Positions 1-51,875 of a stretch of DNA of 64,000 bases are shown here, in pieces (position 1 is the first letter of the stretch; each line of letters opens with the position of its first letter). This DNA is from an uncultured Bacillota bacterium (GTDB lineage: Bacteria; Bacillota_I; Bacilli_A; RFN20; CAG-826), in the NCBI GenBank assembly GCA_949289845.1, contig CASEPN010000001.1:118887-182886 (forward strand). Direction: 5' to 3'. Below the pieces are notes generated by a model. That model saw only the letters and a list, made by a program, of their open reading frames with translations, was not told the DNA's origin and did no database searches. Made by a program: the position numbers and the translations under genes.

Positions 1-1089
1 CGGATCCGCTCGACCCTCCGCTCCGCGAAGGCCTATAACGCAATCCGCGAGCTGACCCGCCAGGCCCGCCCGACCCTCCGCGTGAGGAAGTCCCACCTCG
101 ACCCCGAGGTGCTCCTGAACCCGAGGGACGGCGAGCCCGCCTACGAGGAGACCCAGGTCCCGGGAATCCTCTCCTACGTCGGGAAGTCGCCGCTCCGCCA
201 CCGCCAGGAATGGACCAACAACAACGTCTTCCTCGAGAAGATGGGCACCAAGCACGTCCTTGACCAGGTGGGCGTGGAGGACCCCGGCCAGATCCTCATG
301 TACGCCGACATCGAGGACTCGAGCGCCCTCCGCGAGCTCATCGAGACCTACATGGACACCGTCGGGCTGAACCTCGGCGTCCGCCTCCTCAGCGACCATC
401 TCGAGGTCAGGCGCATGATCCGCCGCGACCAGCTCAAGAACGTCAATCTCTTCGAGGCCGCCCCGGACGCCCTCGAGGCCTACGTCTCGCGCAAGCAGGA
501 GGCGGTCTTCGTCCTCCCGCGCTCGACCGGCTTCGACAACATCCCGAGCGCCCCGGACTACCTCCTCCGCCTGAAGGAAGAGGACGTCAAGGGCCTCGTC
601 GAGAGCCAGGCGAAGATGCTCGAGTCCCTGAGCGAGTACGTCGCCGACGAGGGAAAGCTCGTCTACATGGTCTACACGATCGACGCCCTCGAGGCCCAGG
701 ACCAGATCCGCTCCTTCCTTGAGAAGCACAGCGAGTACTACTGCCTCAAGGAGGAGCAGCTCCTCCCGCAGGAGAGCTACAGGACCGCCCTCTACTACGC
801 GATCCTCGTCAAGGGCGAGAAGCCCCAGTGGCTGATCGAGCAGGAGGAGGCCCAGAAGGCCGCCGAGGCGCTCGAGGAAGAGCGCCGCCGCGCCGAGAGG
901 GCCGCGAAGGAGAGCCCCGCCCCCAAGGCCGAGGAAGCCGCCCCTGAGACCCCTGCTGGAGAAGCTCCCGTCGTCGAAGAGGCCAAGGCTGAGGAGCCTG
1001 CTCCCGCCGAGGAGACCGCTCCCGCCCCCGAGGCCCTCGCGGAGGAGGTTCCCGCCGAGGAGAAGAAGGCCGAGGAGGCCGGGGAATAA
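1..1089 (+). CDS. RsmB/Sun-like 16S rRNA m5C methyltransferase homolog, 5'-partial (open to the window edge; GTG at 82 is the first in-window start). The catalytic motifs appear lost and the C-terminus is an Ala/Glu/Pro-rich tail.
   Basis: Frame 1 has no stop from nt 1 to 1089. The stretch 'EWTNNNVFLEKMG..VLDQVGVEDPGQILMYADIEDSSA' aligns to the RsmB region 'W..G.VxVQDxAS...PxPGExVLDxCAAPGGKT', but CAAPGGKT is replaced. 'VFVLPRSTGFDNIPSAPD' aligns to 'DAPCSGxGVxRRxPD' and 'GKLVYMVYTIDALE' to 'GGxLVYSTCSxxxEENE', with both catalytic Cys lost. It sits immediately upstream of rlmN, as in the Firmicutes yloM-yloN order. Confidence 0.45.
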   Translation, partial: RIRSTLRSAKAYNAIRELTRQARPTLRVRKSHLDPEVLLNPRDGEPAYEETQVPGILSYVGKSPLRHRQEWTNNNVFLEKMGTKHVLDQVGVEDPGQILMYADIEDSSALRELIETYMDTVGLNLGVRLLSDHLEVRRMIRRDQLKNVNLFEAAPDALEAYVSRKQEAVFVLPRSTGFDNIPSAPDYLLRLKEEDVKGLVESQAKMLESLSEYVADEGKLVYMVYTIDALEAQDQIRSFLEKHSEYYCLKEEQLLPQESYRTALYYAILVKGEKPQWLIEQEEAQKAAEALEEERRRAERAAKESPAPKAEEAAPETPAGEAPVVEEAKAEEPAPAEETAPAPEALAEEVPAEEKKAEEAGE

Positions 1090-1092
1090 GGG

Positions 1093-2145
1093 ATGGAGGG
1101 GGCTCTCCCCAACATCCTAGGATTGACGCTTCCCGAGCTCCGCGAGGCCTTCGAGGCCATGGGCGAGAAGCCCTATCGCGCGGAGCAGGTGTTCGATTGG
1201 CTTTACCTCAAGCGCGTCGACTCCTTCGAGGCGATGAGCAATCTTTCGAAGGCGCTCCGCGAGCGCCTTCTTTCCTCCTACTCCCTCTTCCTTCCGCGCA
1301 TCTTCCATGAGGAGCGCGCCAAGGACGGGACAATCAAGCTTCTCCTCGAGATGGTGGACGGGGCGAAGGTCGAGTCCGTATTGATGCGCTACGACTACGG
1401 GAACGCCCTCTGCGTATCCAGCGAAGTCGGCTGCTCGATGGGCTGCGCCTTCTGCGCCTCCGGCCTTCTTAGGAAGGAAAGAGGCCTCACTTCCGCGGAG
1501 ATGGTGGGCCAGCTCCTCGTCATGGACTCTCTCCTCAAGGAAGAGGGGGAGAGGGTGAGCCACGTCGTCGTGATGGGGACCGGGGAGCCTTTCGATAACT
1601 ATGACGAAGTGATGCGCTTCCTCCGGATCGCCAACGAGCAGAAGGGGCTTGCCATCGGGGCGAGGCACCTCACCGTGAGCACCTGCGGCCTCGTCGAGGG
1701 GATCAAGAGGTACGGGAAGGAAGGGCTCCAGCTGAACCTAGCGATTTCCCTTCATGCGCCGAACGACGAAATCCGCGCAAAAATCATGCCGATCGCCAGA
1801 AAATACCCGATGGACCAGCTATTGGAGGCCGTCAGGGAGTACGTGGAGGAGTCGGGGAGAAGGGTCACCTTCGAGTACATCATGATCAAAGGCCTGAACG
1901 ACTCCCTCGACTGCGCCCACGAGCTCGCGGAGAAGATCCGCGGGACGCTTGGCTACGTGAACCTCATACCCCTGAACCCGGTGGAGGAGAAGCCCTTCGA
2001 ACGCTCCCCGCGGAAGAACGTGGAGAAGTTCCGCGACTACCTGAACGCCCACGGGGTGAAGTGCACGATCCGCAAGGAGTTCGGCACGGATATCGACGGG
2101 GCCTGCGGGCAGCTCCGCGCCAAGTACGAGAGGAGGCGCTCCTGA
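1093..2145 (+). CDS. rlmN: 23S rRNA/tRNA m2A methyltransferase RlmN (radical SAM)
   Basis: CxxxCxxC radical-SAM motif 'CSMGCAFCAS'. Typical RlmN N-terminus ('YRAEQVFDWLY'). C-terminal 'GACGQL'. Confidence 0.9.
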   Translation: MEGALPNILGLTLPELREAFEAMGEKPYRAEQVFDWLYLKRVDSFEAMSNLSKALRERLLSSYSLFLPRIFHEERAKDGTIKLLLEMVDGAKVESVLMRYDYGNALCVSSEVGCSMGCAFCASGLLRKERGLTSAEMVGQLLVMDSLLKEEGERVSHVVVMGTGEPFDNYDEVMRFLRIANEQKGLAIGARHLTVSTCGLVEGIKRYGKEGLQLNLAISLHAPNDEIRAKIMPIARKYPMDQLLEAVREYVEESGRRVTFEYIMIKGLNDSLDCAHELAEKIRGTLGYVNLIPLNPVEEKPFERSPRKNVEKFRDYLNAHGVKCTIRKEFGTDIDGACGQLRAKYERRRS

Positions 2146-2146
2146 G

Positions 2147-2905
2147 ATGGGAAAGGTGTACCGCGGGGTTTACGCGGCCAGGACCGACAGGGGCCGGGTC
2201 AGGAGGGGGAACGAGGACCAGGCCTCGGCCTCGGTGAACGCGGACGACGAGGTCTTCCTCATCGTCGCCGACGGGGTCGGGGGTTTCAAGAGGGGCGAGC
2301 TCGCCTCCAAGATGGCGGTCGACTCCCTCCTTGAGAGCTTCCGGGCGAAGAGAAGGCACTGCCTTCCTTTCCTCGACCGCCTCTTCTTCCGCCGGGCGAT
2401 CAAGGAGGCGAACTCCCTTATCTTCGAGACCGCGCGCGGGAATGAGGATAACTGCGGGAACATGTCGACGACCCTGGTTTGCGCCCTCATCAGCGGCTCG
2501 CGCCTCTGGGTCGCCTCGATCGGCGATAGCAGGGCCTACCTCCTCCAGGACGGGAGGCTCGTCCCCCTCACCGAGGACGAGAGCTACGTCCAGGCGCTTG
2601 TCCGCGCCGGGAAGATCAGCGAGAAGGAGGCCCAGACCCATCCGAAGCGCCATATCATCCTGAACGCCCTCGGGGTGTACCCGAGCGTCTCCTTCACCCT
2701 TTCCCGTAGGAAATACCGGGGCGAGCCGATCCTCCTTTGCTCGGACGGGCTCTACACCCAGGTGAGGGAGGAGGACATCGCCCAGGTGCTCCTCACCGAC
2801 CAGCGCCCCGAGCAGAAGGCGATGTCCCTCATCCTCCAGGCGAACATGAACGGCGGCTCGGACAACGTCGCCATCAGCTACTGGGAGGCCTTCCCCCATG
2901 ATTGA
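2147..2905 (+). CDS. PP2C-family Ser/Thr protein phosphatase (PrpC/Stp-like)
   Basis: Motifs 'ADGVGG', 'GDSRAYL', 'LLCSDGL' and 'NGGSDN' are typical of bacterial PP2C. The start overlaps the rlmN stop (TGAGATG). It is followed by a kinase, as in prpC-prkC. Confidence 0.85.
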   Translation: MGKVYRGVYAARTDRGRVRRGNEDQASASVNADDEVFLIVADGVGGFKRGELASKMAVDSLLESFRAKRRHCLPFLDRLFFRRAIKEANSLIFETARGNEDNCGNMSTTLVCALISGSRLWVASIGDSRAYLLQDGRLVPLTEDESYVQALVRAGKISEKEAQTHPKRHIILNALGVYPSVSFTLSRRKYRGEPILLCSDGLYTQVREEDIAQVLLTDQRPEQKAMSLILQANMNGGSDNVAISYWEAFPHD

Positions 2906-3776
2906 GATCGGAAGCAAGGTCGACGGGCGCTACCGCATCATGGGCCGGATCGCCCATGGGGGCATGGCTGACATATACGAGGCCTACGACGTCGTCCTCC
3001 GCCTCCCCGTCGCCCTCAAGCTCATGCGGAGCGACATGATGGGGAAGAAGGAGAACCTCGAGCGCTTCCGCAGGGAATGCATCGCCGCGGCAAGCCTCAA
3101 CAACCCCTACATCGTGAAGGTGTATGGGTCGGGCGAGATCGACGGGCGCCCCTACATGGCGAACGAATACGTCGACGGGAGGACCGTCCGCGACAAGCTC
3201 AACATGACCGCGGGGCACTCCCTTTCGGCGCTTGAGTCCTGCGAGATCATGCTCCAGCTGACGAGCGGGGTGAGCTACATCCATTCCCACGGGCTCGTCC
3301 ACCGCGACCTCAAGCCGGACAACATCTTCTATCTCGCCGACGGCTCCATCAAGATCAGCGACTTCGGGATCGCGACGAGGCTCGGGGAACGGGCCGAGGG
3401 GGACAGGGTCCCTGGCACCATCTTCTACACCGCGCCGGAGACACTCCTTTCGGGGACGGCGATCGTCCAGAGCGACATCTACTCGATGGGCATCGTCTTC
3501 TTCGAGCTCCTGACCGGAAGGGTCCCTTTCGACGCCGGGAGGACGGAGGAGGTCGCTCTCGCCCACATAAACAAAAGGATGCCGGAGCCCAGCGCCTTCG
3601 CCCCGAGCGTGCCCCGCTCCCTGGACCGCATCGTCCTCAAGGCGACGAGGAAGAGGCCCCAGGACCGCTACCGCACCTCCGAGGAGATGCACCAGGCGAT
3701 CGAGGAGGCCCTAAGGAGCGGCAACGACTTCCAGGAAAGGAGAGGCTTCCTTTCGCGCCTCTTCGGTTTCAAGTGA
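2898..3776 (+). CDS. Hanks-type Ser/Thr protein kinase (catalytic domain only, no TM or PASTA)
   Basis: Motifs 'HRDLKPDNI', 'DFGIA', 'APE', and the Lys in 'ALKLM'. 292 aa and soluble. It overlaps the phosphatase by 8 nt. Confidence 0.85.
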   Translation: MIEIGSKVDGRYRIMGRIAHGGMADIYEAYDVVLRLPVALKLMRSDMMGKKENLERFRRECIAAASLNNPYIVKVYGSGEIDGRPYMANEYVDGRTVRDKLNMTAGHSLSALESCEIMLQLTSGVSYIHSHGLVHRDLKPDNIFYLADGSIKISDFGIATRLGERAEGDRVPGTIFYTAPETLLSGTAIVQSDIYSMGIVFFELLTGRVPFDAGRTEEVALAHINKRMPEPSAFAPSVPRSLDRIVLKATRKRPQDRYRTSEEMHQAIEEALRSGNDFQERRGFLSRLFGFK

Positions 3777-3777
3777 T

Positions 3778-4461
3778 ATGAAGATCGAGGAACTTAGGAC
3801 GCCTCTCGTCGCCCCTTCTCTCCTGGCGAGGAAAGGGGAGGGCCTTCTCGAGGCCGCGCTTTCCTTGGAGGGGCAGGGGATCCAGGCGCTTCATTTCGAC
3901 TTCATGCGCCCGCCCTACGTGGACGGGGAAGGCCTTTCCTACGAGGACTTCTCCCTTATTCACGGGAAGACCGGTCTCTTCGAGGACGTCCACGTGATGA
4001 GCGGCTCCCCCCTCGAGGACGGGAAGTGGTTCCTCGAGAAAGGGGCGGACGCGGTGACCGTCCACGGGGATTCCGGAAAAGAAAGGGAGATCCACGAGCT
4101 TTTCTCGCTCGCGCATTCCCTAGGCAAAGCCGCGGGGATCTCGATCAGCCCGCACGTTCCTCTCTCTTCGATCCTTCCTTTCCTCGATGAGGTCGAGCTT
4201 GTGCTTGTGATGGGCGTCGTTCCCGGCGCCTGCGGGAAGTCCTTCGACCCCAGGGGAGAGGAACATCTTCTTGAAATCTCCGCGATTCGCGGGGATTTCC
4301 TCCGAAAAGGGAAGAAAGGCTTCCTTATCTCCTTCGATGGGTCCGTGAACGGGGAGAACGGGAGGCGCCTCGTCAAAGAAGGCGCGGACATCCTCGTCAC
4401 AGGCTCGTACTACTTTAACGGCGATCCCAGGGAAAGGCTGGCCTCGCTTCTTGGAAGATGA
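3778..4461 (+). CDS. rpe: ribulose-phosphate 3-epimerase-like protein (divergent)
   Basis: Matches RPE motifs: 'HFDFMR' (HxD), 'DVHVM', 'VLVMGVVPGACGKSF' (SVxPGFGGQxF-like), 'FDGSVN' (DGG-like), 'GADILVTGS'. Its position after the kinase matches the Firmicutes order. Some motif residues diverge. Confidence 0.6.
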   Translation: MKIEELRTPLVAPSLLARKGEGLLEAALSLEGQGIQALHFDFMRPPYVDGEGLSYEDFSLIHGKTGLFEDVHVMSGSPLEDGKWFLEKGADAVTVHGDSGKEREIHELFSLAHSLGKAAGISISPHVPLSSILPFLDEVELVLVMGVVPGACGKSFDPRGEEHLLEISAIRGDFLRKGKKGFLISFDGSVNGENGRRLVKEGADILVTGSYYFNGDPRERLASLLGR

Positions 4462-24309: not shown

Positions 24310-25448
24310 GCGAAGAGAACACCATGCGGCTCCTCCAGGAGCCAAGCCCGCACGTCCGGAGGAAGGACAGCGCCACGAGGATGATGCTTGACGTCCTCCT
24401 CGCCCTGCTCCCTCTCCTCATCTTCTCCTTCATCGTCTACCGCCTCGACGCCCTCAAGGTGTTCGGGATTGCGGTCCCGGCGATGATGATCGCCGAATGG
24501 GTTTTCGTCATGATCAAGGGACGGATGCCCTACGACGGGGAGAAGCATCCCTTCAAGGAGAAGTTCCTCCACGCCCTGAAGCTATACCGCCCGGTGAACG
24601 CCGTGGCCCCCGCCGTCTCTGCCCTCATCTTCGGGATGTGCCTCCCGCCCAGCACGAGCTGGTGGGGCGTCCTCGTCGGGGCGCTCGCCGGCATCATCTT
24701 CGGGAAGCTCCTCTTCGGGGGCCTCGGGCAGAACATCTTCAACCCCGCCGCCGTGGGCATGATCCTCACGCGTCTCAGCTTCTCCAACACGATGAGCTAC
24801 CCCGCCATCCCTTGGGGCGAGGGCACGATGGTCGACGTCGTCACCGGGGGCACCGTCCTTTCCGGCACAATCCAGGGCGGCTACTCCTCCCTCATGGACG
24901 TCTCCCTCCTCGACCTCTTCCTGGGCAGGACCCAGGGGGCGATGGGAGAAGTCTGCAAGGTCCTCATCCTCGTCGGGCTCCTCTATCTCCTGCTTCGCCA
25001 GGCGATCGACTGGCGGGTGACCTTCACCTATATCGGCGCCTTCACCGCCCTCATCGCCATCGCCGGCATCGCCATCGCCGGGGGCGGCATCGTCAAGGAC
25101 TTCGACATCTGGCACTTCATCGGGGTCGAGTTCCTCGCGGGAGGCATGCTCTTCGGGGCGACCTTCATGCTGACCGACCCGGTCACGATGCCGGCGACGA
25201 AGCCGGGGCGCTACATCTACGCCCTCTCCGCCGCCTCCCTCACCGTCCTCATCCGTCTCTTCGCCTCCGCTCCCGAGGGGGTCGGCTACTCGATCCTCCT
25301 CGCCAATCTCATCACGCCGGTCCTCGACCACCACAAGGTGGCCTCGTCCCGGTGGACGTGGAAGAAGTGGCTGACCATCGGCCTCATCCTCCTCGCCGAC
25401 ATCCTCTTCATCGTCATCGGAATCATCTTCGGAGGTAAAGTCAAATGA
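24306..25448 (+). CDS. rnfD: Rnf complex subunit D (NqrB/RnfD family)
   Basis: Polytopic. 'FMLTDPVTMPATKPG' carries the conserved Thr used for covalent FMN. ATGA coupling. Confidence 0.9.
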   Translation: MSEENTMRLLQEPSPHVRRKDSATRMMLDVLLALLPLLIFSFIVYRLDALKVFGIAVPAMMIAEWVFVMIKGRMPYDGEKHPFKEKFLHALKLYRPVNAVAPAVSALIFGMCLPPSTSWWGVLVGALAGIIFGKLLFGGLGQNIFNPAAVGMILTRLSFSNTMSYPAIPWGEGTMVDVVTGGTVLSGTIQGGYSSLMDVSLLDLFLGRTQGAMGEVCKVLILVGLLYLLLRQAIDWRVTFTYIGAFTALIAIAGIAIAGGGIVKDFDIWHFIGVEFLAGGMLFGATFMLTDPVTMPATKPGRYIYALSAASLTVLIRLFASAPEGVGYSILLANLITPVLDHHKVASSRWTWKKWLTIGLILLADILFIVIGIIFGGKVK

Positions 25449-28400
25449 AGATCAAGCTCGACGCAAAGCACGTTCTCTCGGTCGTCGCCGTCCTCGCCCT
25501 CATCGGCGGCGGGGCGGGCGCCCTCATCGGGACGGTGAACTACTTCACCAGCCCTGTCATCAGCGAGAATGACGACAAGAAGGAGAACGAGGCCTACTAC
25601 AAGTGCTTTCCGGACGCGGCCTCCTTCAGCGATGAGACCGAGGTCTCCAGCGGCACTTACATCGAGACGTACAAGAGCGCCCTCGACGCCTCCGGGAACG
25701 AGATCGGCAAGGTGTACCATGCGGTGGGCGCGACCGGCTTCGGCGCGAACGTCGACCTCCTGATTGGCGTCGACGCTGACGGGCTCGCCCACATCGAGAT
25801 CGTCGCCTACGGCCCGGATAACACCGGAGGCAACAACAAGACCGTAGAGGATTGGATCGACTCCATCAACGACGGGAGCGAGACGATCGACGGGGGCACC
25901 ACCACCGGGGCGACCAACACCGCCTCTGTCGTGAGGGCGATGGTCGCCGAGGCCCTCGATCTCTATGAGAACGGCGACGTGACGCCCCCGCCCGTTACCG
26001 GCGGCGAGAAGTACTACAACCTCTTCGAAGGCGGCGCCTCCGCAGGGGACAAGGTGAGCGTTGCCTCTGGAAGCCTCGACCACTACCGCGAGGTGAAGGA
26101 TGCCTCAGGGAACATCCTTGGACGCGCCTACTACGGCGGCGGGCTCAACGTCTTCGGCGTCAGCATCAACGTCATCGTCGGCGTCACCCCCGAGGGGGAG
26201 GTCACGAAGCTCTACCTCGACGCGTACTCGGGCGGCGAGCAGATGGGGACCGACACCACGATCAAGAACTGGATCGACGAGGTCAACAGCGGTGACAGGG
26301 AGTGGACCGCCGGTCCTAGCGCAGGCGCCTCCTATGAGGTTATCAAGGGCGTCATCGACGAGGCTATCGCGCACTATACCTCCGCTGCCCCTGCGCCGAC
26401 CTACGAGGAGTCCGTCTACCTCGGCCTCTTTGAGGGCGCGAGCTCTATCGGCGCCTTCCGCGAGCTGGGCGGGAACTACCTCACAGGGCGCGTGGATGTC
26501 CTGGACGCGGACGGGGAAGTCCTCGGCTACGCCTATGAGGGCGAGGGCAAGAACAGCTACAACGTCCACATTGCCCTCGTCGTCGGCGTGAAGACGGACG
26601 GGACTGTGACGAAGCTCTACCTCGGCGACTACTCTGGTGGGAACCCTGCGGGCACCGAGACGAGCGTCAATGAATGGATCGACAAGGTCAACGACGGCAC
26701 CGGCTCCATCGAGGCCGGCCCGAGCGCGACCTATTCCTACCAGGTCATCAAGGGCATCATCGACGAGGCCGTCGGCTACGCGACCGGCGCCATCGTCGAC
26801 CCGAGTGAGAACTACCTCGAGCTCTTCGAGGGGGCCTCTTCCCTTGGCGAGGAAGTCGAGCTGACCGGCGACTACGAGTACATCGCCTCCTATCGCGAGG
26901 TGAAGGGCAGCTCTGGCGCGGTGCTCGGAAGAGGCTACATCACGAACACCACGAACGTCGGGGATAGGTGGGGCAACCTCCAGCTTCTCATCGGCGTATA
27001 TCCCGACGGCACCATCTCCAAGGTCATCGCCCTTACCGACGAACAGAGCCGCCCGGACGGGACGAACGAGTACATCGAATCCGTGAATGGCGGCGGCGAC
27101 TACGAGGATATCTTCGGCTACGAGGCCTCGAGCGGAACCGTCGGAATTGAGATAACCCATGACGCGATTGCCGAGGCGATCGGGGACTACACCGGCGTGG
27201 CGAACCTCCCTGCCGAAATCACGAAGGCCATGGCGAGCATTCTTCCTGATGCCGCCGGCTGGGGCCAACCCACTGTCGTCAACGAGGGCTACATCATCGG
27301 AAGGATGCCCGTCCTTGACGAGGACGGCGTCGAGACGGGCGCTTCCTACTATCTCTCGGGCGCCGCGAGCGACGGGGAATATGATCTCGTAATCCTCGTC
27401 AAGGAGGATGGGTCCTTCACCCTTAGCCTAGTGAGCGGCGACTGGGACAGCGCCTACCTCGCCGGTGTCGAGGCGTGGATCGCCAAGATCAACGACGGGA
27501 GCGCCCACTACCGTGACGACATCAAGGACTCGGGCGTCAACCAGGCGGCTTATGCGATCGCCGCCAACATCGAGGCGGTCCTCGCCTACGAAACGGAAAC
27601 CACCGAGTCTCCCTACCTCGCCCTTTGGGACGGTTCCTATTCCGTGAGCTCCTCCCAGGCCGTCGAAGGCGGGACCTACCTCCACTCCTACCGCGAGGTG
27701 CGGGACGGCGCCGGGAAGGTCCTCGGAAGGGGCTACCTCACCAAGGTGACCTCCGTCCCGAGCAGTCGCGGGAGCTATGGGGATATCCAGGCCCTCATCG
27801 CGGTCAACAAAGACGGCACCATCAAGGAGGTGACGCTTCTTCAGAACACCCAGTCCATCCCCGGTTCCACCGACGAGTACGCCGGGTTCGTCAATGGCGG
27901 CGGGAACTACGAGGAGGTGCCTGAATATAGCGGCGGCACCATCGGCGTCGACATCCTCAAGGACATGATCGGGGAGGCGCTTACCCACTACGAGCAGAAC
28001 CCCGATCAGGTCGTCGATCCTGCCGAGCCCGTCGTTCCGACCAACATCCCCGAGGCCGTGAAGGCGCTCATCCCGGAGGCCCACTCCTGGAACGCCTTCG
28101 TTGAGCTTTCCGCCGTCTGGCAGGCGACCGGCTACTGGAGCGCCCTTGATGAAAGCGAGGCCGAGATCGGCCGCGTCTACGAGTTCAAGGCCGGGAGCAC
28201 GGGCGATGACAACCTCTACTACGTCGCTCTCGACGAAGACGCCGAGATCATCCAGCTCGAGGTCGTGAATACGACGCTCGAGGGCGAGAACCTGACCGCC
28301 CTCACCACATGGGTCGAGCAGCTGAACACGGGCAAGGCCATCCCGGAGATTCCTTCGGATAGCCCCATCGCCTCCGAGCTCGGATGGGTCGAGTCCGGGA

Positions 28401-28789
28401 TCGAGGACGCCCAGGCCGACTACCTTGGCGACGTCCCCGCCGCGGTGGAGGAGAAGGTCGCTTCCTTCGTCACGGAGAGCTTCGGCGAGAACGCCAAGTT
28501 CGACATGCCTTCCTCTGTCTCCAACGAGGACATCCCCGAGGTCACCAACCGCTATAACGTCTACGTTCCTTCGGACGATCCGACGGGCGGGACCCCGACC
28601 TACCCGGGCGACGTCTGGCTCGCCCATGTCAAGACCGATTCCTATGACGCCTACGTCCTCATCGCCGTCGGCGACCTCATCACGGACGACGTCGACACGG
28701 ATGCGGCCCGCTACCTCGTATGCTCCGAGGAGGGGACCAGGGACACGGAAGCCATCGACGCAGTCGTGGAGGCGCTCCTCGCGCTCTAG
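25445..28789 (+). CDS. rnfG: Rnf complex subunit G, hugely expanded: N-terminal TM anchor plus about 8 tandem FMN-binding-domain-like repeats (1114 aa)
   Basis: N-terminal 'VLSVVAVLALIGGGAGALIG' anchor as in RnfG. Repeat 1, 'DASGNEIGKVYHAVGATGFGANVDLLIGVDADGLAHIEIVAYGPDNTGGN..IDGGTTTGATNTASVVRAM', aligns to canonical RnfG/FMN_bind 'GYGG.I.LLVGID.DGKI.GV.IL.H.ETPGLG....DAITGATITSRAV'. Seven further units of about 130 aa have the same pattern (e.g. 'NVIVGVTPEGEVTKLYL', 'ALVVGVKTDGTVTKLYL', 'LLIGVYPDGTISKVIAL', 'ALIAVNKDGTIKEVTLL') with variant flavinylation motifs (SAGAS, SAT, SSGT, SGGT). Confidence 0.8.
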   Translation: MKIKLDAKHVLSVVAVLALIGGGAGALIGTVNYFTSPVISENDDKKENEAYYKCFPDAASFSDETEVSSGTYIETYKSALDASGNEIGKVYHAVGATGFGANVDLLIGVDADGLAHIEIVAYGPDNTGGNNKTVEDWIDSINDGSETIDGGTTTGATNTASVVRAMVAEALDLYENGDVTPPPVTGGEKYYNLFEGGASAGDKVSVASGSLDHYREVKDASGNILGRAYYGGGLNVFGVSINVIVGVTPEGEVTKLYLDAYSGGEQMGTDTTIKNWIDEVNSGDREWTAGPSAGASYEVIKGVIDEAIAHYTSAAPAPTYEESVYLGLFEGASSIGAFRELGGNYLTGRVDVLDADGEVLGYAYEGEGKNSYNVHIALVVGVKTDGTVTKLYLGDYSGGNPAGTETSVNEWIDKVNDGTGSIEAGPSATYSYQVIKGIIDEAVGYATGAIVDPSENYLELFEGASSLGEEVELTGDYEYIASYREVKGSSGAVLGRGYITNTTNVGDRWGNLQLLIGVYPDGTISKVIALTDEQSRPDGTNEYIESVNGGGDYEDIFGYEASSGTVGIEITHDAIAEAIGDYTGVANLPAEITKAMASILPDAAGWGQPTVVNEGYIIGRMPVLDEDGVETGASYYLSGAASDGEYDLVILVKEDGSFTLSLVSGDWDSAYLAGVEAWIAKINDGSAHYRDDIKDSGVNQAAYAIAANIEAVLAYETETTESPYLALWDGSYSVSSSQAVEGGTYLHSYREVRDGAGKVLGRGYLTKVTSVPSSRGSYGDIQALIAVNKDGTIKEVTLLQNTQSIPGSTDEYAGFVNGGGNYEEVPEYSGGTIGVDILKDMIGEALTHYEQNPDQVVDPAEPVVPTNIPEAVKALIPEAHSWNAFVELSAVWQATGYWSALDESEAEIGRVYEFKAGSTGDDNLYYVALDEDAEIIQLEVVNTTLEGENLTALTTWVEQLNTGKAIPEIPSDSPIASELGWVESGIEDAQADYLGDVPAAVEEKVASFVTESFGENAKFDMPSSVSNEDIPEVTNRYNVYVPSDDPTGGTPTYPGDVWLAHVKTDSYDAYVLIAVGDLITDDVDTDAARYLVCSEEGTRDTEAIDAVVEALLAL

Positions 28790-36336: not shown

Positions 36337-36412
36337 GGACCATTAGCGCAGCGGTTAGCGCGGGCCCCTTATAAGAGCTAGGTCGCAGGTTCAAATCCTG
36401 CATGGTCCACCA
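36337..36412 (+). tRNA. tRNA-Ile-like with anticodon TAT (UAU)
   Basis: Perfect acceptor 'ggaccat/atggtcc'. Anticodon loop 'cttataa' (34-36 = TAT). The body ('ttagcgcagcggttagcgc', 'aggtcgcaggttcaaatcctgc') closely resembles bacterial tRNA-Ile2, with CAT replaced by TAT. CCA encoded. Confidence 0.7.
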
Positions 36413-36490: not shown

Positions 36491-38026
36491 ATGAGAAAAG
36501 CATGGTCCCTCCTCCTTCCTCTTCTCGCCCTTTCCTCCTGCGTCCCCGAAGGGACGACGGGGGATTCTTCCTCGACGAAGGAGGAGCCTTCCTCTAGTTC
36601 CTCGGAAGAGATCGAGGGGGGTTTCTGGATCGAAGGCCCTTCCTTGCTCGACATCGGGGAACGGGGGCGCTACGAGCTCATGGGGGACGTCCCCGAGGGC
36701 GAGATCCATTGGGAAGTCGAGGGCGAGAGCCTCGTCGAGCCCTATGAGTACCCCAACCCCCTCTACTACGGCCTCACGGGGCTATATGAGGGAGAGGTCG
36801 TCCTCAAGGCGATGTTAGGGGACAAGGTCCTCTTCCCTTTCGAGATCGAGGTGAAGGACGTCGACTCGGGCTTCCTCGTGGACGCGGGGACCGGGAAGCT
36901 CGCGCTCGGAGGGAAGATGGAGCTTTCCTTCTCGCTTGATGGGGAGCCCCTTCCTGCGAAGGAACTCTCCTCCGTCTCGATCACGACGCTTTCCTCGCCT
37001 TCGGGGAAGGGGCTCGTCTCCTCCTATGAGGACGAAGGCCTCTTCCTACTCGGGGAGGAGCTCGGGAGCTTCCGCGCGGTCGCTTCCTACGAGGGCCTTC
37101 TCTCCAACCCCTTCGAGATCGAGGTGATTCCTTCCGTCGAGGGGAAGACGTACCTCCTGGAGGTGCTTCTTGAAGACGGGACGCCCGCGGAAGAGAACAC
37201 CATCCCGACCTCTTCCACGGTCACCTTCGTCCTCCGGGACGAGGAAGGGGAGGACTATCCCTTCCAGTGGGGCGTGGAGCTCCTCGAAGGGGACTCCTGG
37301 GTCCTCCAGGAGACAGAGGATCCCCATGTCTACGAGACCTACATCTGGTCCGAGGAGAGGCTCCTAATCGCTCCTGCCTTCCCCGGGGAAGCGCCCGCGC
37401 TCGCGGCGGAGGCCCTCGAACTATACGTGATGCACGAAGGGGACACCCCTCTTCTGGACTTCCATCTCGAGGATGAGGCTGGGAACGAGGTCGAGACGCT
37501 CTTCGTCAGCCCTGACGGGAGCACGAGGCTCCATATCGTCCCGGAGCGAGAGACGGACTACCTCGGCACCGCGAACGTCCACTGCGAGGACGAGAGGCTC
37601 AACCCCGGCCAGGAATGGGGCGAGGAGGGAGGGCGCTACCTCATCTTCGCCCCCGAGGAGGGAGGGAGCTACTCCCTTCTCGTCAGGTTCACGTTCGTGA
37701 AGAAGGAGTTCCCGGTCCACGTTATGCCGGAGGAGGCCGCCCTCGAGCTTGAGATCATGGGGACGGGCACGATGGACGGGGAGAAGTACTACGTCGGACA
37801 TACGGGCTCGATCACGGGAGGGTTCCCTTGGGAGGGGCCCATCTACTGCGACCTCGTCGACTACGACGTCGAGTACGTCTTCCTTGAGGGCGAGGACCTC
37901 GTCCGCATCGGGGAGGGACGGGACATTCATTTCCTTTCCCCTGGCACGGTGAGCCTATATGCGCAGATCAGGAACACCGAGGTCAAGAGCAACACCTTCG
38001 CCTTCGAGATCGAGCCCGAGGAATAG
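36491..38026 (+). CDS. acidic secreted lipoprotein, hypothetical (Ig-like repeats likely)
   Basis: 'LLLPLLALSSCVPEG' lipobox. Glu-rich, beta-rich repeats. Confidence 0.5.
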   Translation: MRKAWSLLLPLLALSSCVPEGTTGDSSSTKEEPSSSSSEEIEGGFWIEGPSLLDIGERGRYELMGDVPEGEIHWEVEGESLVEPYEYPNPLYYGLTGLYEGEVVLKAMLGDKVLFPFEIEVKDVDSGFLVDAGTGKLALGGKMELSFSLDGEPLPAKELSSVSITTLSSPSGKGLVSSYEDEGLFLLGEELGSFRAVASYEGLLSNPFEIEVIPSVEGKTYLLEVLLEDGTPAEENTIPTSSTVTFVLRDEEGEDYPFQWGVELLEGDSWVLQETEDPHVYETYIWSEERLLIAPAFPGEAPALAAEALELYVMHEGDTPLLDFHLEDEAGNEVETLFVSPDGSTRLHIVPERETDYLGTANVHCEDERLNPGQEWGEEGGRYLIFAPEEGGSYSLLVRFTFVKKEFPVHVMPEEAALELEIMGTGTMDGEKYYVGHTGSITGGFPWEGPIYCDLVDYDVEYVFLEGEDLVRIGEGRDIHFLSPGTVSLYAQIRNTEVKSNTFAFEIEPEE

Positions 38027-38070: not shown

Positions 38071-40326
38071 ATGAGAAGACCGTTCCTTGCCCTTTTCCTA
38101 TCTCTCTTCCTTCTTGCCTCCTGCGAGGAGCAGGGGGATCCCCTCGTGCCCCCCGAGCCCGCGGACGAGTTCTCCTTCGTCACCGAGGGCGGCGTCCTCG
38201 ACATCGGGGAGACAAGGGAGATCTTCTTTTTTCCCCGGAACGGGGCGAAGCCTACCTTCGAGATCGAGGGAAAGGGGGCGAGGATCCTCGACGTCGGGGA
38301 GGACTCCCTCCTCGTCCAGGGGATTGCGGAAGGGGGCTTCCTCCTGGAGGAGGCGAATAGCGGCGTCTCCCTTTCCCTATCGGTCGAGGACTTGTGGAGC
38401 GGATACTACCTCGAGGCGGACGCCATCTCCCTCATGGAAGGGGAGCGGGCCTCCCTCGCCCTCCATGGCCCCGGGGACGAGCTCCTTCCCTTGGAAGAGG
38501 GCATGCTCCGCCTTCTCCCCGGGAGCGCAGAGGCCTCCTTCCCCCTGGACGAGTTCGGGACCCCATCCCTCCAGGCGGACGGGACCGGGGAGATCCTCCT
38601 TTTCGCCGAGATGGAGGACGGGTCCGTCACGGACGTCCTTTCGATAAAAAGCACCATGTTCCTTGAGCCTCTCTATCTTTCCCTTGAAGGAGGGAACGGC
38701 GACTTCCGCCCCGGGGAGAAAAGGGAGCTCTCCCTCATGGACCGCTGGGGCGATCCTTATGAAGGGGACTGGGAGCCGACCATCAGGAACCTCGACATGT
38801 TTTCCACGCCTTTCGCCTTGGAAGGAAAGGAAATATCCGCGCTTTCCTCTGGGGAATGCGAGGTTTCCGCGAAAGTTGAGGAGGATGGATACGAAGTCCA
38901 GCCCCTCCGTCTCCTCTCCGCGGAGGAAGGGGAGAAGCGCCCCTACGAGCTCCGCCTCGTGAACGCCTATAACGAAAGCGACTGGGACGAGGACGGGCTC
39001 TGGATGAACCTCCAGGACGGGTATGGCTACGGCTTCTCTCTCTGGACGGACGTGGACGGCCCCAAGGGCTCGATCCAGGTCGAGTGTCTCGCCGGGGATC
39101 CCGAGGCCGTCCTTTTCGAAGTGGAAGAGGACTTCGGCTCCGGGCATATGGCCGATTGCTCCGTCCGTCCCATCAAGGAAGGCTCGGCGACCTACCGCGT
39201 GCGGATCGGGAGCCTATATAGCGAGGAGTACACCTTCCATGCGCTTCCTGGATGGAACTCCCGTCCTTCCCTTTCCCTGGAGGACGATGAGATCCCGGTG
39301 GGAGGGAAGACGAGGCTCCTCCCTTCCGTGGAAGGATCGGAAGGCGAGTACCTCTTCGACTATGTGGTCGTGGACGGGGAAGGGACCGCGAAGCTTCTCG
39401 AGGGCGGGGTCCTCGCCGGGGAGCGGGTCGGCTCGATGACCATCCAGGTGCGCCTCAGGGGAGAGCGCGGGCTTTGGGGCGAGTCGGTCGTCCTCGACGT
39501 AACGGAGGAAGGGAGCGGCGACCCCTACGTCGGGATGAGCCCGGAGGAGTTCTACCGGGACTACGAGCAGGCGGAGACGCTCCTGGACAGCTACTACCGC
39601 ACGAGGCACGGCTTCCTCTCGGGCTCGCTCGAGGTCCCGGGCCAGTACGCGGAGCTTTCCGAGGACCGCCCCATGGAGGACGGGCTATACGTCAAGAACA
39701 CATCCCTTTCCTTCTCCGAGGGCGGGTCCGCCTATACGGTGAGGGATAGCCAGGGGAACGAGTCGTTCACCATCTTCGAGGGCGGGGGCTACATCACCCT
39801 CGAGGAGGTCGCCGCCTATCTCTTCGCCTTCGGGGACGTCCCTGCCAACTATTGGGAGGACCGCTACGACTACCCTTCCCCTTCCTCAAGCGAGTGGGGC
39901 GAGTACCTCAGGCTCAACAACTCCTACTTCTCCGGGGACCAGGAGAGCTACCCTTACGAGCCCGCCCTTCCGGATATCTCCGGGATCGAAGGCGGGAGGA
40001 GCGACTACTATGAGGTCGACGTCGGGACGACGGGGACCTATACGGGTCCCTCCTTTCCCGTGAGGCCCTATAACGACGGCTACTCGATCACCCGCGGAGG
40101 GGCGAGGCTCGTCTACATGCGCTATACGGACGGGGAGGAAAGCCAGGCTCCCGCCCGGAAGGTGTTCTACACCTGGAACCACTACAACGACTTCCGCGAG
40201 TACCTGAACTACGAAGGGGGCTGGGGCGAGGCCTTCGGGAACGTGACCGCGGGGGGCGAGGTCGACGTCGTCGCCCCGGGAGGGCCGTCCCCTTACGTTC
40301 CAGTGGCGGAGAAGGGTCTTTTCTAA
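38071..40326 (+). CDS. secreted lipoprotein with C-terminal barnase/RNase-Sa-family ribonuclease domain
   Basis: Lipobox 'LLASCEEQ'. The C-terminal segment 'YYEVDVG..RGGARLVYMRYTDG..VFYTWNHYNDF' aligns to barnase 'TWREADINY..GFRNSDRILYSSD..IYKTTDHYQTF' with catalytic Glu, Arg, Arg and His conserved. The preceding 'ITLEEVAAYLFAFGDVPANYWEDR' matches barnase 'VADYLQTYHKLPDNYITKSE'. Confidence 0.6.
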   Translation: MRRPFLALFLSLFLLASCEEQGDPLVPPEPADEFSFVTEGGVLDIGETREIFFFPRNGAKPTFEIEGKGARILDVGEDSLLVQGIAEGGFLLEEANSGVSLSLSVEDLWSGYYLEADAISLMEGERASLALHGPGDELLPLEEGMLRLLPGSAEASFPLDEFGTPSLQADGTGEILLFAEMEDGSVTDVLSIKSTMFLEPLYLSLEGGNGDFRPGEKRELSLMDRWGDPYEGDWEPTIRNLDMFSTPFALEGKEISALSSGECEVSAKVEEDGYEVQPLRLLSAEEGEKRPYELRLVNAYNESDWDEDGLWMNLQDGYGYGFSLWTDVDGPKGSIQVECLAGDPEAVLFEVEEDFGSGHMADCSVRPIKEGSATYRVRIGSLYSEEYTFHALPGWNSRPSLSLEDDEIPVGGKTRLLPSVEGSEGEYLFDYVVVDGEGTAKLLEGGVLAGERVGSMTIQVRLRGERGLWGESVVLDVTEEGSGDPYVGMSPEEFYRDYEQAETLLDSYYRTRHGFLSGSLEVPGQYAELSEDRPMEDGLYVKNTSLSFSEGGSAYTVRDSQGNESFTIFEGGGYITLEEVAAYLFAFGDVPANYWEDRYDYPSPSSSEWGEYLRLNNSYFSGDQESYPYEPALPDISGIEGGRSDYYEVDVGTTGTYTGPSFPVRPYNDGYSITRGGARLVYMRYTDGEESQAPARKVFYTWNHYNDFREYLNYEGGWGEAFGNVTAGGEVDVVAPGGPSPYVPVAEKGLF

Positions 40327-47185: not shown

Positions 47186-47251
47186 AGGCAAGATTATAGG
47201 GAGGGAGAATTCCCTCCTGAAGGTATAATGGGAGCGCTTGGAGGACAATCT

Positions 47252-48301
47252 ATGCGAAAGAACGCCGCCTTGGCCTTCCTCGTCCCTCTCTTCGCCCTCG
47301 CTTCCTGCGGAGGGGAGGAGATCTCAAGCGCCCCGCGCCATGCCATCGACTGGGAGGAAGGAGAGGGCTACCTCATCACGAACCTTCCCGAAAGCGCGAT
47401 GGAGGGCGACCCCGTCTACTTCGATCTCGAGGTGCTCAGCGTCTTTTATAAGGTGGACGCCGTCTACATGAACGGGGAGGAGATCTTCGACACAGGGATC
47501 GGCTACCGCTTCACGATGCCCACGGAGGACGCCCTCGTCACGGTCGAGACGAGCCTCATCGAAAACTACGACGATCCCGAGGACAACCTTTCCTGGGGAA
47601 CTTCCTTCGACGGGAGGATCTCCGAGGCGAGCGAGTCGGACAAGGGCGCGAGCTGGGACGTGACGACGGAAATCCCGCTTCTCTTCCATAACATCAGCTC
47701 CGGGAGCTACGTCAGCTCGATCGAGGCGACCATCGACGTCAGCGATCCCGATGTCATTCCTCTGGACGCGATCGAGTTCGTCCCGGTGACCGCCTCCATG
47801 AGCAGCTCCATCGTCGGCGGCTACCTCGAGGTGGACCTCAAAGAGGTCAAGGCGGGGGAATGCCTCGTCTATGTCTCGCTTGATCCGAACAACGGCAGCC
47901 TCGGGACCCTCATCCGCAAGATCGAGGTGGTCCCCTACGGGGAGCTCAAGGTCGAGACGATGGAAGTCGAGGCGACCTTCGAGAACCGCTCCTCCTACCA
48001 AAGCGGAGTCTTCGTGAACATCAGCGACCAGGACTATATCTATGGCTCCGACACCAAGGAGATCCACACCGTCTGGCTGGACGAGCTGACGGACGGAACC
48101 TATGCCTTCGACTACGCGATCGGGCACACCTATCTCGTGAGCGCCGCCTACTATCCCGATGGCGCGACCACGATGGTCGGCCTCCACGTGAACGACTGGG
48201 TGGGCACGAACGAGGGAGGGGCGAGCAACCATATCCTGGACGGCTACCTCGTGCTCGAGACCCCGGGCGCTTCCCCGGCCATCGTCCTTGCGGACGACTG
48301 A
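47252..48301 (+). CDS. hypothetical lipoprotein
   Basis: 'MRKNAALAFLVPLFALASCGGEE' lipobox. RBS 'ggagga' 8 nt upstream. Confidence 0.5.
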   Translation: MRKNAALAFLVPLFALASCGGEEISSAPRHAIDWEEGEGYLITNLPESAMEGDPVYFDLEVLSVFYKVDAVYMNGEEIFDTGIGYRFTMPTEDALVTVETSLIENYDDPEDNLSWGTSFDGRISEASESDKGASWDVTTEIPLLFHNISSGSYVSSIEATIDVSDPDVIPLDAIEFVPVTASMSSSIVGGYLEVDLKEVKAGECLVYVSLDPNNGSLGTLIRKIEVVPYGELKVETMEVEATFENRSSYQSGVFVNISDQDYIYGSDTKEIHTVWLDELTDGTYAFDYAIGHTYLVSAAYYPDGATTMVGLHVNDWVGTNEGGASNHILDGYLVLETPGASPAIVLADD

Positions 48302-51798: not shown

Positions 51799-51875
51799 CG
51801 CGGGGTAGAGCAGCCTGGTAGCTCGTCAGGCCCATAACCTGAAGGCCGGTGGTTCAAATCCATCCCCCGCAACCA
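51799..51875 (+). tRNA. initiator tRNA-fMet (anticodon CAT)
   Basis: Near-identical to E. coli tRNA-fMet: C1xA72 mismatch ('cgcgggg..ccccgca a cca'), anticodon stem/loop 'tcaggcccataacctga'. Confidence 0.9.

Follow-up and report, generated by a model that had tools for sequence, protein, structure and literature searches.

Methyltransferases that modify ribosomal RNA (rRNA) are nearly universal, and their knockouts are usually mild. It is a long-standing question whether it is the methyl group or the protein itself that makes cells keep these enzymes. The question is raised directly by a gene at the start of a 64,000-nucleotide stretch of DNA (the window) from an uncultured Bacillota bacterium (GenBank assembly GCA_949289845.1, contig CASEPN010000001.1, positions 118,887 to 182,886 of the forward strand). 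An earlier note on this DNA had described the gene product as an RsmB-like pseudo-enzyme with degenerate catalytic motifs. We refer to the protein as pseudo-RsmB, and our analysis favours, with some reservation, the reading that it is a catalytically dead rsmB orthologue kept as a binding or assembly factor, a role that we infer. The lineage that carries it is one of uncultured, wall-less-type gut Bacilli, with relatives that include 'Candidatus Enteromonas' in the GTDB order RFN20.

The window contains the C-terminal 362 residues of pseudo-RsmB, followed by the stop codon, on the plus strand at positions 1–1089. Frame 1 is open from the first base up to the TAA codon at positions 1087–1089, and the gene is thus truncated by the start of the window. 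A full-length counterpart of 506 residues (P0001, 99% identical) is encoded on an ENA contig that reaches further upstream (L005), where R145 corresponds to residue 1 of the open reading frame (ORF) in the window. The numbering of P0001 is used below.

Homology to RsmB is weak by sequence alone. The match to Pfam PF01189 is borderline (27.7 bits, cut-off 27) and spans no more than about 68 residues. The thresholds of the curated NCBIfam equivalog models for RsmB (TIGR00563, PRK14902 and PRK10901, with cut-offs that span 269–540) were missed, the best equivalog score being 46.5 bits against a cut-off of 319 and the score for TIGR00563 being 31.1 against 269. A phmmer search of the PDB sequences gave a sole match, the Fmu homologue of P. 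horikoshii (2YXL, E = 7e-4). With a family profile, the homology is unambiguous and extends from end to end: the alignment of a 135-member profile to E. coli RsmB by hhalign gave a probability of 98.8% (E = 8e-17) over 396 columns, spanning RsmB residues 9–429. An AlphaFold2 model based on the family alignment reached a mean predicted local distance difference test (pLDDT) score of 92 and a predicted template modelling (pTM) score of 0.85. The best matches among solved structures, identified with Foldseek, were E. coli Fmu/RsmB (1SQF/1SQG), with a target-normalized template modelling (TM) score of 0.83 over approximately 440 columns at 14% identity, followed by PH0851, Nop2 in pre-60S particles, RsmF, Trm4, NSUN6 and NSUN4. 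Thus, based on the model and its structural matches, all three domains of RsmB have been kept, namely the NusB-like N-domain, the ferredoxin-like central domain and the Rossmann methyltransferase domain. The earlier note had aligned the protein to the RsmB core, and both comparisons extend this homology to the whole protein.

The catalytic motifs were read from three independent alignments: phmmer to 2YXL, MAFFT with E. coli RsmB, and hhalign. In none of these are the catalytic cysteines or the motifs that bind S-adenosylmethionine (SAM) preserved. In motif I, DLCAAPGGKTTH of E. coli lies opposite MYADIEDSSALR, and the SAM loop CAAPGGKT is replaced by ADIEDSSA. In motif II, VAVDID lies opposite GLNLGV and the acidic SAM ligand is gone. 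Motif IV aligns LLDAPCSATG with FVLPRSTGFD, such that DAPCS becomes LPRST and the Asp of DAPC becomes Leu, and motif VI aligns LVYATCS with LVYMVYT, such that TCS becomes VYT. The register of motif VI is ambiguous by two residues, the family having two extra residues ahead of an invariant threonine. The nucleophile position in P0001 could accordingly be Y369 or I371, neither of which is a cysteine. This ambiguity is immaterial, since the only cysteines in P0001 are C138 and C392, with none within residues 139–391. Both observations of the earlier note, that the SAM motif is replaced and that the two catalytic cysteines are substituted (LPRST and VYT(I)), were thus reproduced.

The same degeneration was found throughout the family. 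A scan of one genome per GTDB species recovered 56 loci encoding the protein at 24–95% identity, annotated as metagenome-assembled genomes (MAGs) of uncultured Bacilli, Firmicutes, Erysipelotrichaceae or 'Ca. Enteromonas' from rumen and gut, and the motifs were degenerate in all 56. When 1.84 billion cluster representatives were searched exhaustively with HMMER, 161 clusters passed E ≤ 1e-30 and 586 passed E ≤ 1e-10. A word-indexed search with a four-sequence alignment was less productive (6 proteins), probably owing to word candidates that came mostly from the low-complexity tail. Of the best 150 representative clusters, 135 had full-length sequences; motif statistics were calculated for these, and every one of them is in the degenerate state. 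The glycine-rich motif I is present in none of the 135, and the loop is shortened in 122. The column of the motif IV cysteine contains serine in 96 sequences, asparagine in 29, cysteine in eight and glycine in two. The aligned nucleophile column is unconstrained (Pro 46, Asn 21, Asp 19, Tyr 11 and others), and the candidate nucleophile columns are either variable (P/N/D/Y) or hydrophobic (L/I/M), with T370 and E375 being invariant. Having lost the acidic SAM ligands, the glycine loop and the two catalytic cysteines, pseudo-RsmB cannot form 5-methylcytosine (m5C) by the known mechanism.

The eight members with a cysteine at motif IV (P0036, P0063, P0065, P0081, P0099, P0104, P0109 and P0125) all lack the SAM loop, and P0109 additionally has a T-C-S string at motif VI. 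These eight members may be evolutionary intermediates of the decay of the enzyme.

In a sample of 30 clusters, the NCBI name was 'hypothetical protein' and the IMG name often 'RsmB'; the sources were MAGs of uncultured Bacilli, some of them of order RFN20, and no cultured organism was present among them. 'Ca. Enteromonas' corresponds to the GTDB genus UBA733 in order RFN20, family CAG-826 (PMC8035907). RFN20 is a reduced-genome lineage beside the Mycoplasmatales, and CAG-826 has been predicted to lack peptidoglycan (PMC10868615).

The pattern of substitutions indicates that pseudo-RsmB is held under purifying selection. The ratio of non-synonymous to synonymous substitution rates (dN/dS; Nei-Gojobori method, residues 1–418) was 0.146 in the comparison with L008 (95% identical) and 0.193 in that with L009 (83%), and the ratio for each sub-domain was below 0.32. 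The best-conserved stretch is the former RNA- and cytosine-binding half from motif IV to the C-terminus (residues 300–415), with the consensus P-x-S-S-x-F-D-x-I-R-x-x-P-D ... G-G-x-L-x-Y-x-V-x-T-[LI]-[NS]-K-K-E-G. Good conservation was also seen for an N-x-P-x-W motif and, in the N-domain, for an L-R-H motif, and the former SAM-binding half (residues 240–300) is the least conserved part. Judged from the alignments, this pattern fits a loss of cofactor binding with a macromolecular binding surface being kept. The proposal of a retained pseudo-enzyme is thus strongly supported by the family-wide degeneration and the low dN/dS.

The order gmk-priA-X-[pseudo-RsmB]-rlmN-PP2C-STK-(rsgA)-rpe-...-rpmB, in which STK denotes the Ser/Thr protein kinase and X the gene directly upstream, was observed in the window, on L001–L006, at all 56 loci from GTDB species and in two members that are only distantly related. 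The gaps and overlaps of a few bases between pseudo-RsmB, rlmN, the PP2C gene, the kinase gene and rpe (Table 1) indicate that these genes form one operon. The counterpart region in B. subtilis is priA-def-fmt-rsmB-rlmN-prpC-prkC-cpgA-rpe. On the basis of this shared gene order, pseudo-RsmB is the positional orthologue of rsmB and not a stray paralogue, in agreement with the rsmB (yloM) position upstream of rlmN that the gene had been given. In distant members, the gene for the 30S assembly GTPase, rsgA (cpgA), is located between the kinase gene and rpe (L064:7442-8332, L065:7350-8219). The window lacks it at this place, with 1 nt separating the stop of the kinase gene from the start of rpe (positions 3776–3778).

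Wherever a locus extends far enough upstream, the place of def and fmt is occupied by gene X, also in the most distant members, L064 and L065. The encoded protein has 150–197 residues. Its conserved N-terminal domain (118 residues) is followed by an acidic linker, in many species rich in histidine and cysteine (HHHHHH and CDCD runs), and by a short conserved C-terminal motif. Its identity between relatives is 41–70%, as compared to 24–58% for pseudo-RsmB. Homologues were found in 1513 clusters, all named 'hypothetical protein', and a few homologues match PF08921. The AlphaFold2 model of X resembles the DUF1904 structure 4M1A (TM score 0.82) and tautomerase/MIF-fold proteins, although X has no N-terminal proline. 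The candidate explanation that X is a degenerate Def or Fmt was ruled out by this fold.

Table 1. Features of the pseudo-RsmB gene and its neighbours (positions in the window unless a contig is named)
Feature	Position	Strand	Basis
Pseudo-RsmB, 3' part, 362 codons and stop	1..1089	+	hhalign to E. coli RsmB 98.8%; AlphaFold2 pLDDT 92; 1SQF, TM 0.83
Degenerate motif I, MYADIEDSSA replacing E. coli DLCAAPGGKT	298..327	+	Alignments; loop shortened and variable across the family
Degenerate motif IV, VLPRSTGFD replacing LDAPCSATG; cysteine of Pro-Cys replaced by Ser	511..537	+	Alignments; family column
Degenerate motif VI, LVYMVYTIDALE replacing LVYATCSVLPEE; no nucleophile Cys	658..693	+	Alignments; family columns
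Charged E/R/K/A-rich C-terminal helix, P0001 residues 420-447	826..909	+	DSSP helix 420-448; pLDDT 95-98
Disordered acidic A/E/P-rich tail, 59 residues, net charge -15	910..1086	+	pLDDT 47-68; composition
rlmN, radical-SAM 23S rRNA/tRNA methyltransferase, 3 nt downstream of pseudo-RsmB	1093..2145	+	PF21016, PF04055; downstream in all loci
PP2C phosphatase, prpC-like	2147..2905	+	Pfam; conserved context
Ser/Thr protein kinase, prkC-like, kinase domain only	2898..3776	+	Pfam; conserved context
Ribulose-phosphate 3-epimerase, rpe	3778..4461	+	Pfam; conserved context
Gene X	L005:9509-9997, just upstream of the window start		3-nt gap to pseudo-RsmB in L005

Searches with tblastn using E. coli Def, Fmt and RsmB found no second rsmB, def or fmt in the window and more than 60 loci, but just weak matches of pseudo-RsmB itself, and Pfam scans of the approximately 45 window proteins gave no further match to PF01189. 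Thus, no intact second copy, for which the earlier note had proposed a check, was found within the 64-kb window or within about 13 kb around each relative. Loss of def and fmt is known from some Mollicutes (PMC4014445).

The window contains no rRNA, but two of its tRNA genes deserve mention. The initiator-type tRNA-Met at positions 51799–51875 keeps the C1xA72 mismatch, and of the three G:C pairs that are conserved in initiators the first is replaced by A29:U41. Alpha-proteobacteria and a few mycoplasmas are known to have the same au/GC/GC variant (PMC5389676), and a link between the variant and a lost P-site methylation is speculative. A tRNA-Ile with the anticodon TAT (UAU) is located at positions 36337–36412 beside a tRNA-Ala and an elongator tRNA-Met. 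Such a tRNA is rare in bacteria and suggests decoding of AUA without lysidine (TilS).

The C-terminal extension of pseudo-RsmB consists of two parts. Residues 420–447 (420–448, 29 residues, by DSSP) are predicted with high confidence to form a long charged helix, a feature restricted to the window clade and its sister species of low GC (guanine plus cytosine content). The tail that follows (residues 448–506) is predicted to be disordered and contains 32% Glu, 29% Ala and 17% Pro. The earlier note had described an Ala/Glu/Pro-rich tail of about 70 residues; the tail is real and, at 59 residues with 78% of these amino acids, close to the described length. The 47 other window proteins reach at most 47% Ala/Glu/Pro in any 40-residue stretch, and 12 of them at most 40% in any 58-residue stretch. 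In most members from the 56 loci the extension is an unrelated one of about 30 residues, and it is missing from the most basal members. The full extension of about 100 residues, with helix and Ala/Glu/Pro-rich tail, is confined to the clade of 64–65% GC (the window, L008 and L009), and P0004 also has a long A/E/P/K tail. In the sister species of 37–39% GC the tails are shorter and rich in S/K/E, and tail composition thus tracks GC content. The tail is reshuffled and differs in length already between 95%-identical relatives, and its DNA contains short imperfect repeats only. From these comparisons, the tail is a young, fast-evolving, lineage-specific low-complexity expansion that neither defines the family nor is central to the conserved function. 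The GC content of the carrier species (L008–L063) ranges from 32% to 65%, with 64–65% in the window clade and 37–39% in the sisters (51–58% protein identity), which is a very large shift within a narrow lineage.

As an rsmB orthologue without catalysis, pseudo-RsmB would work through binding. Hints at such a non-catalytic function come from the genomic context, namely its place in the operon and the invariant neighbour X. It would most likely be a maturation or quality-control factor for the 30S subunit or 16S rRNA in the region of helix 31, and it possibly acts jointly with the adjacent DUF1904-fold protein X. A parallel would be provided by rRNA methyltransferases for which the presence of the protein, and not its activity, counts in ribosome assembly. 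The methyl group itself is dispensable, as RsmB deficiency in E. coli left initiation from most codons unaffected and had mild effects (PMC3643588). RsmB is dispensable or the gene lost in many Mollicutes (PMC4014445). Several points weigh against this reading. The folded part of the protein is acidic (pI 5.5, net charge −14), and the tail adds another −15. The NusB-like N-domain has a net charge of −4, as compared to +7 in E. coli RsmB, and only the central domain is basic (+4). Such acidity is not expected for a simple RNA binder. The tight conservation of X may mean that the true partner is a protein instead of rRNA, and an intact second rsmB or an rsmF may be present elsewhere in the genome.

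The acidity of both body and tail also speaks for the best of the alternatives, which we consider unlikely although it deserves attention. It states that pseudo-RsmB has been neofunctionalized as a scaffold and has abandoned rRNA. Together with X it would form a module based on protein-protein contacts, such as a regulator, a metal-linked factor or a chaperone for basic proteins, in which the old active-site cleft is reused as a binding surface. The constant adjacency of X, its higher conservation relative to pseudo-RsmB and the conservation of the motif IV–VI region as a new consensus, P-x-S-S-x-F-D-x-I-R-x-x-P-D and Y-x-V-x-T-[LI]-N/S-K-K-E-G, are consistent with such a module. However, adjacency of genes alone does not establish a complex, and the operon (with rlmN, and rsgA in basal members) as well as the full RsmB architecture, including the RNA-recognition domains, point to the ribosome.

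A bolder suggestion, to which we give a rather small chance, combines the two genes with initiation. In this scenario, the ancient, initiation-linked def-fmt-rsmB cassette of this Mollicutes-like Bacilli clade has been rebuilt as a module of X and a dead RsmB that acts on the P-site of the 30S subunit (helix 31) or on the selection of initiator tRNA without methylation, perhaps together with a lost Met-tRNA formylation and the au/GC/GC initiator tRNA. If true, X and the dead RsmB would represent a bacterial factor of a new kind for small-subunit maturation or initiation, with an rRNA methyltransferase as its origin.

It is improbable that the N-domain is the functional part, with a NusB-like role in rRNA transcription antitermination or in the binding of BoxA-type RNA and with the dead methyltransferase domain as ballast. 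The N-terminal helical domain is predicted at a pLDDT of 94–98, and G47, L50, R51 and H52 within it are conserved across the family. Foster et al. (2003) are said to have described the N-domain of RsmB as a homologue of NusB. Yet no Pfam NusB match was obtained for pseudo-RsmB, the positive charge of the N-domain has been lost, and conservation peaks in the C-terminal half of the methyltransferase domain and not in the N-domain.

We regard it as very improbable that pseudo-RsmB is still an RNA methyltransferase or another enzyme that relies on non-canonical cofactor binding and a mechanism without cysteine. The Rossmann fold is intact in the model, S319/S320 and D330 are highly conserved beside the invariant T370 and E375, and the few members with a motif IV cysteine, as well as the T-C-S string of P0109, could be read in this direction. 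However, the threonine and glutamate are conserved also in canonical RsmB (TCS...EE) and are therefore structural and not a new catalytic set. Furthermore, deletion or shortening has affected the glycine-rich loop, which is also variable. Neither the Asp of motif IV nor the acidic ribose ligand at the end of strand 2 is present, and the nucleophile column is unconstrained.

That the gene is decaying as a pseudogene or is an artefact of assembly or sequencing, as the very weak scores against curated RsmB models and the low-complexity tail in a high-GC MAG-type sequence might suggest, is effectively refuted by the recurrence of the same substitutions in independent assemblies (ENA, NCBI, JGI and Logan), by the intact ORF here and in every relative, by the dN/dS of 0.15–0.19 and by the confidently predicted fold. 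Clades within RFN20 reassign AGG or CGG (PMC8629427). An alternative genetic code was nevertheless rejected, since neither Cys nor Gly codons arise from any reassignment and AGG falls on conserved Arg positions here.

Elsewhere in the window, the RnfG position of the cluster rnfC-rnfD-...-rnfE-rnfA-(rnfB-like)-apbE is occupied by a giant, very acidic protein of 1114 residues (positions 25445–28789, pI 4.05) with a single FMN_bind domain at residues 778–846 and no Pfam match in the remainder. Three further very acidic proteins of 511, 751 and 357 residues (pI 4.05–4.13) are encoded at positions 36491–38026, 38071–40326 and 47228–48301, respectively, and have no Pfam match.

The preferred reading, a dead RsmB kept for binding, would make this clade a natural experiment: the chemistry of RsmB was dropped, whereas the protein stayed, with the same fold and operon position and under purifying selection, which argues for a selectable function of RsmB that is independent of methylation. 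The IMG label '16S rRNA (cytosine967-C5)-methyltransferase' on some members would mislead the inference of rRNA modification for gut bacteria of the RFN20 type. For a domain of unknown function, a testable lead is provided by the DUF1904-fold protein that is invariably paired with pseudo-RsmB.

Compared to RsmB/Fmu/Sun/YloM, the 16S m5C967 methyltransferase (1SQF/1SQG, TIGR00563, PF01189), pseudo-RsmB has the same slot upstream of rlmN and the same three-domain architecture, and it has kept the hP-x-W motif, the R-x-x-P-D loop after motif IV and the T...E of motif VI. It differs by its low sequence identity of 14%, by scores far below the family cut-offs, and by the absence of the SAM loop, the acidic residues of motifs II and IV and the catalytic cysteines. 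The acidic N-domain, the added C-terminal helix and the disordered acidic tail also distinguish it from RsmB.

The functional model that we propose is NOP2/NSUN1 (yeast Nop2, human p120), an m5C methyltransferase of the RsmB family that acts on the large subunit, shares the NSUN fold and is, as Nop2 in pre-60S particles, among the top structural matches. What NOP2/NSUN1 does in ribosome biogenesis depends little on catalysis (PMC9561284). NOP2 has all catalytic motifs and methylates, whereas pseudo-RsmB has lost catalysis in the course of evolution and its presumed target is the small subunit. RlmB and RlmKL in E. coli have assembly roles that are independent of methylation, also with RlmB and RlmL catalytically dead (PMC11194073), and likewise KsgA (PMC3534330). 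Thus, the binding of an rRNA methyltransferase can in itself aid subunit assembly, and selection can retain the protein beyond the loss of activity. These three are active enzymes of which the inactive forms are laboratory mutants, whereas pseudo-RsmB is a naturally fixed inactive form throughout its clade.

In our literature searches, a naturally inactive bacterial RsmB was not found described. Natural pseudo-methyltransferases of other kinds are METTL14 and yeast mitochondrial Mtf1/mtTFB, the latter derived from KsgA-type rRNA dimethylases. As in pseudo-RsmB, the Rossmann methyltransferase fold has been kept in these proteins for binding or scaffolding after the loss of cofactor or catalytic residues, although they belong to other methyltransferase families and have other partners. 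Pseudo-RsmB is a pseudoenzyme that originates from an rRNA methyltransferase, an instance of a concept established elsewhere and not a new category.

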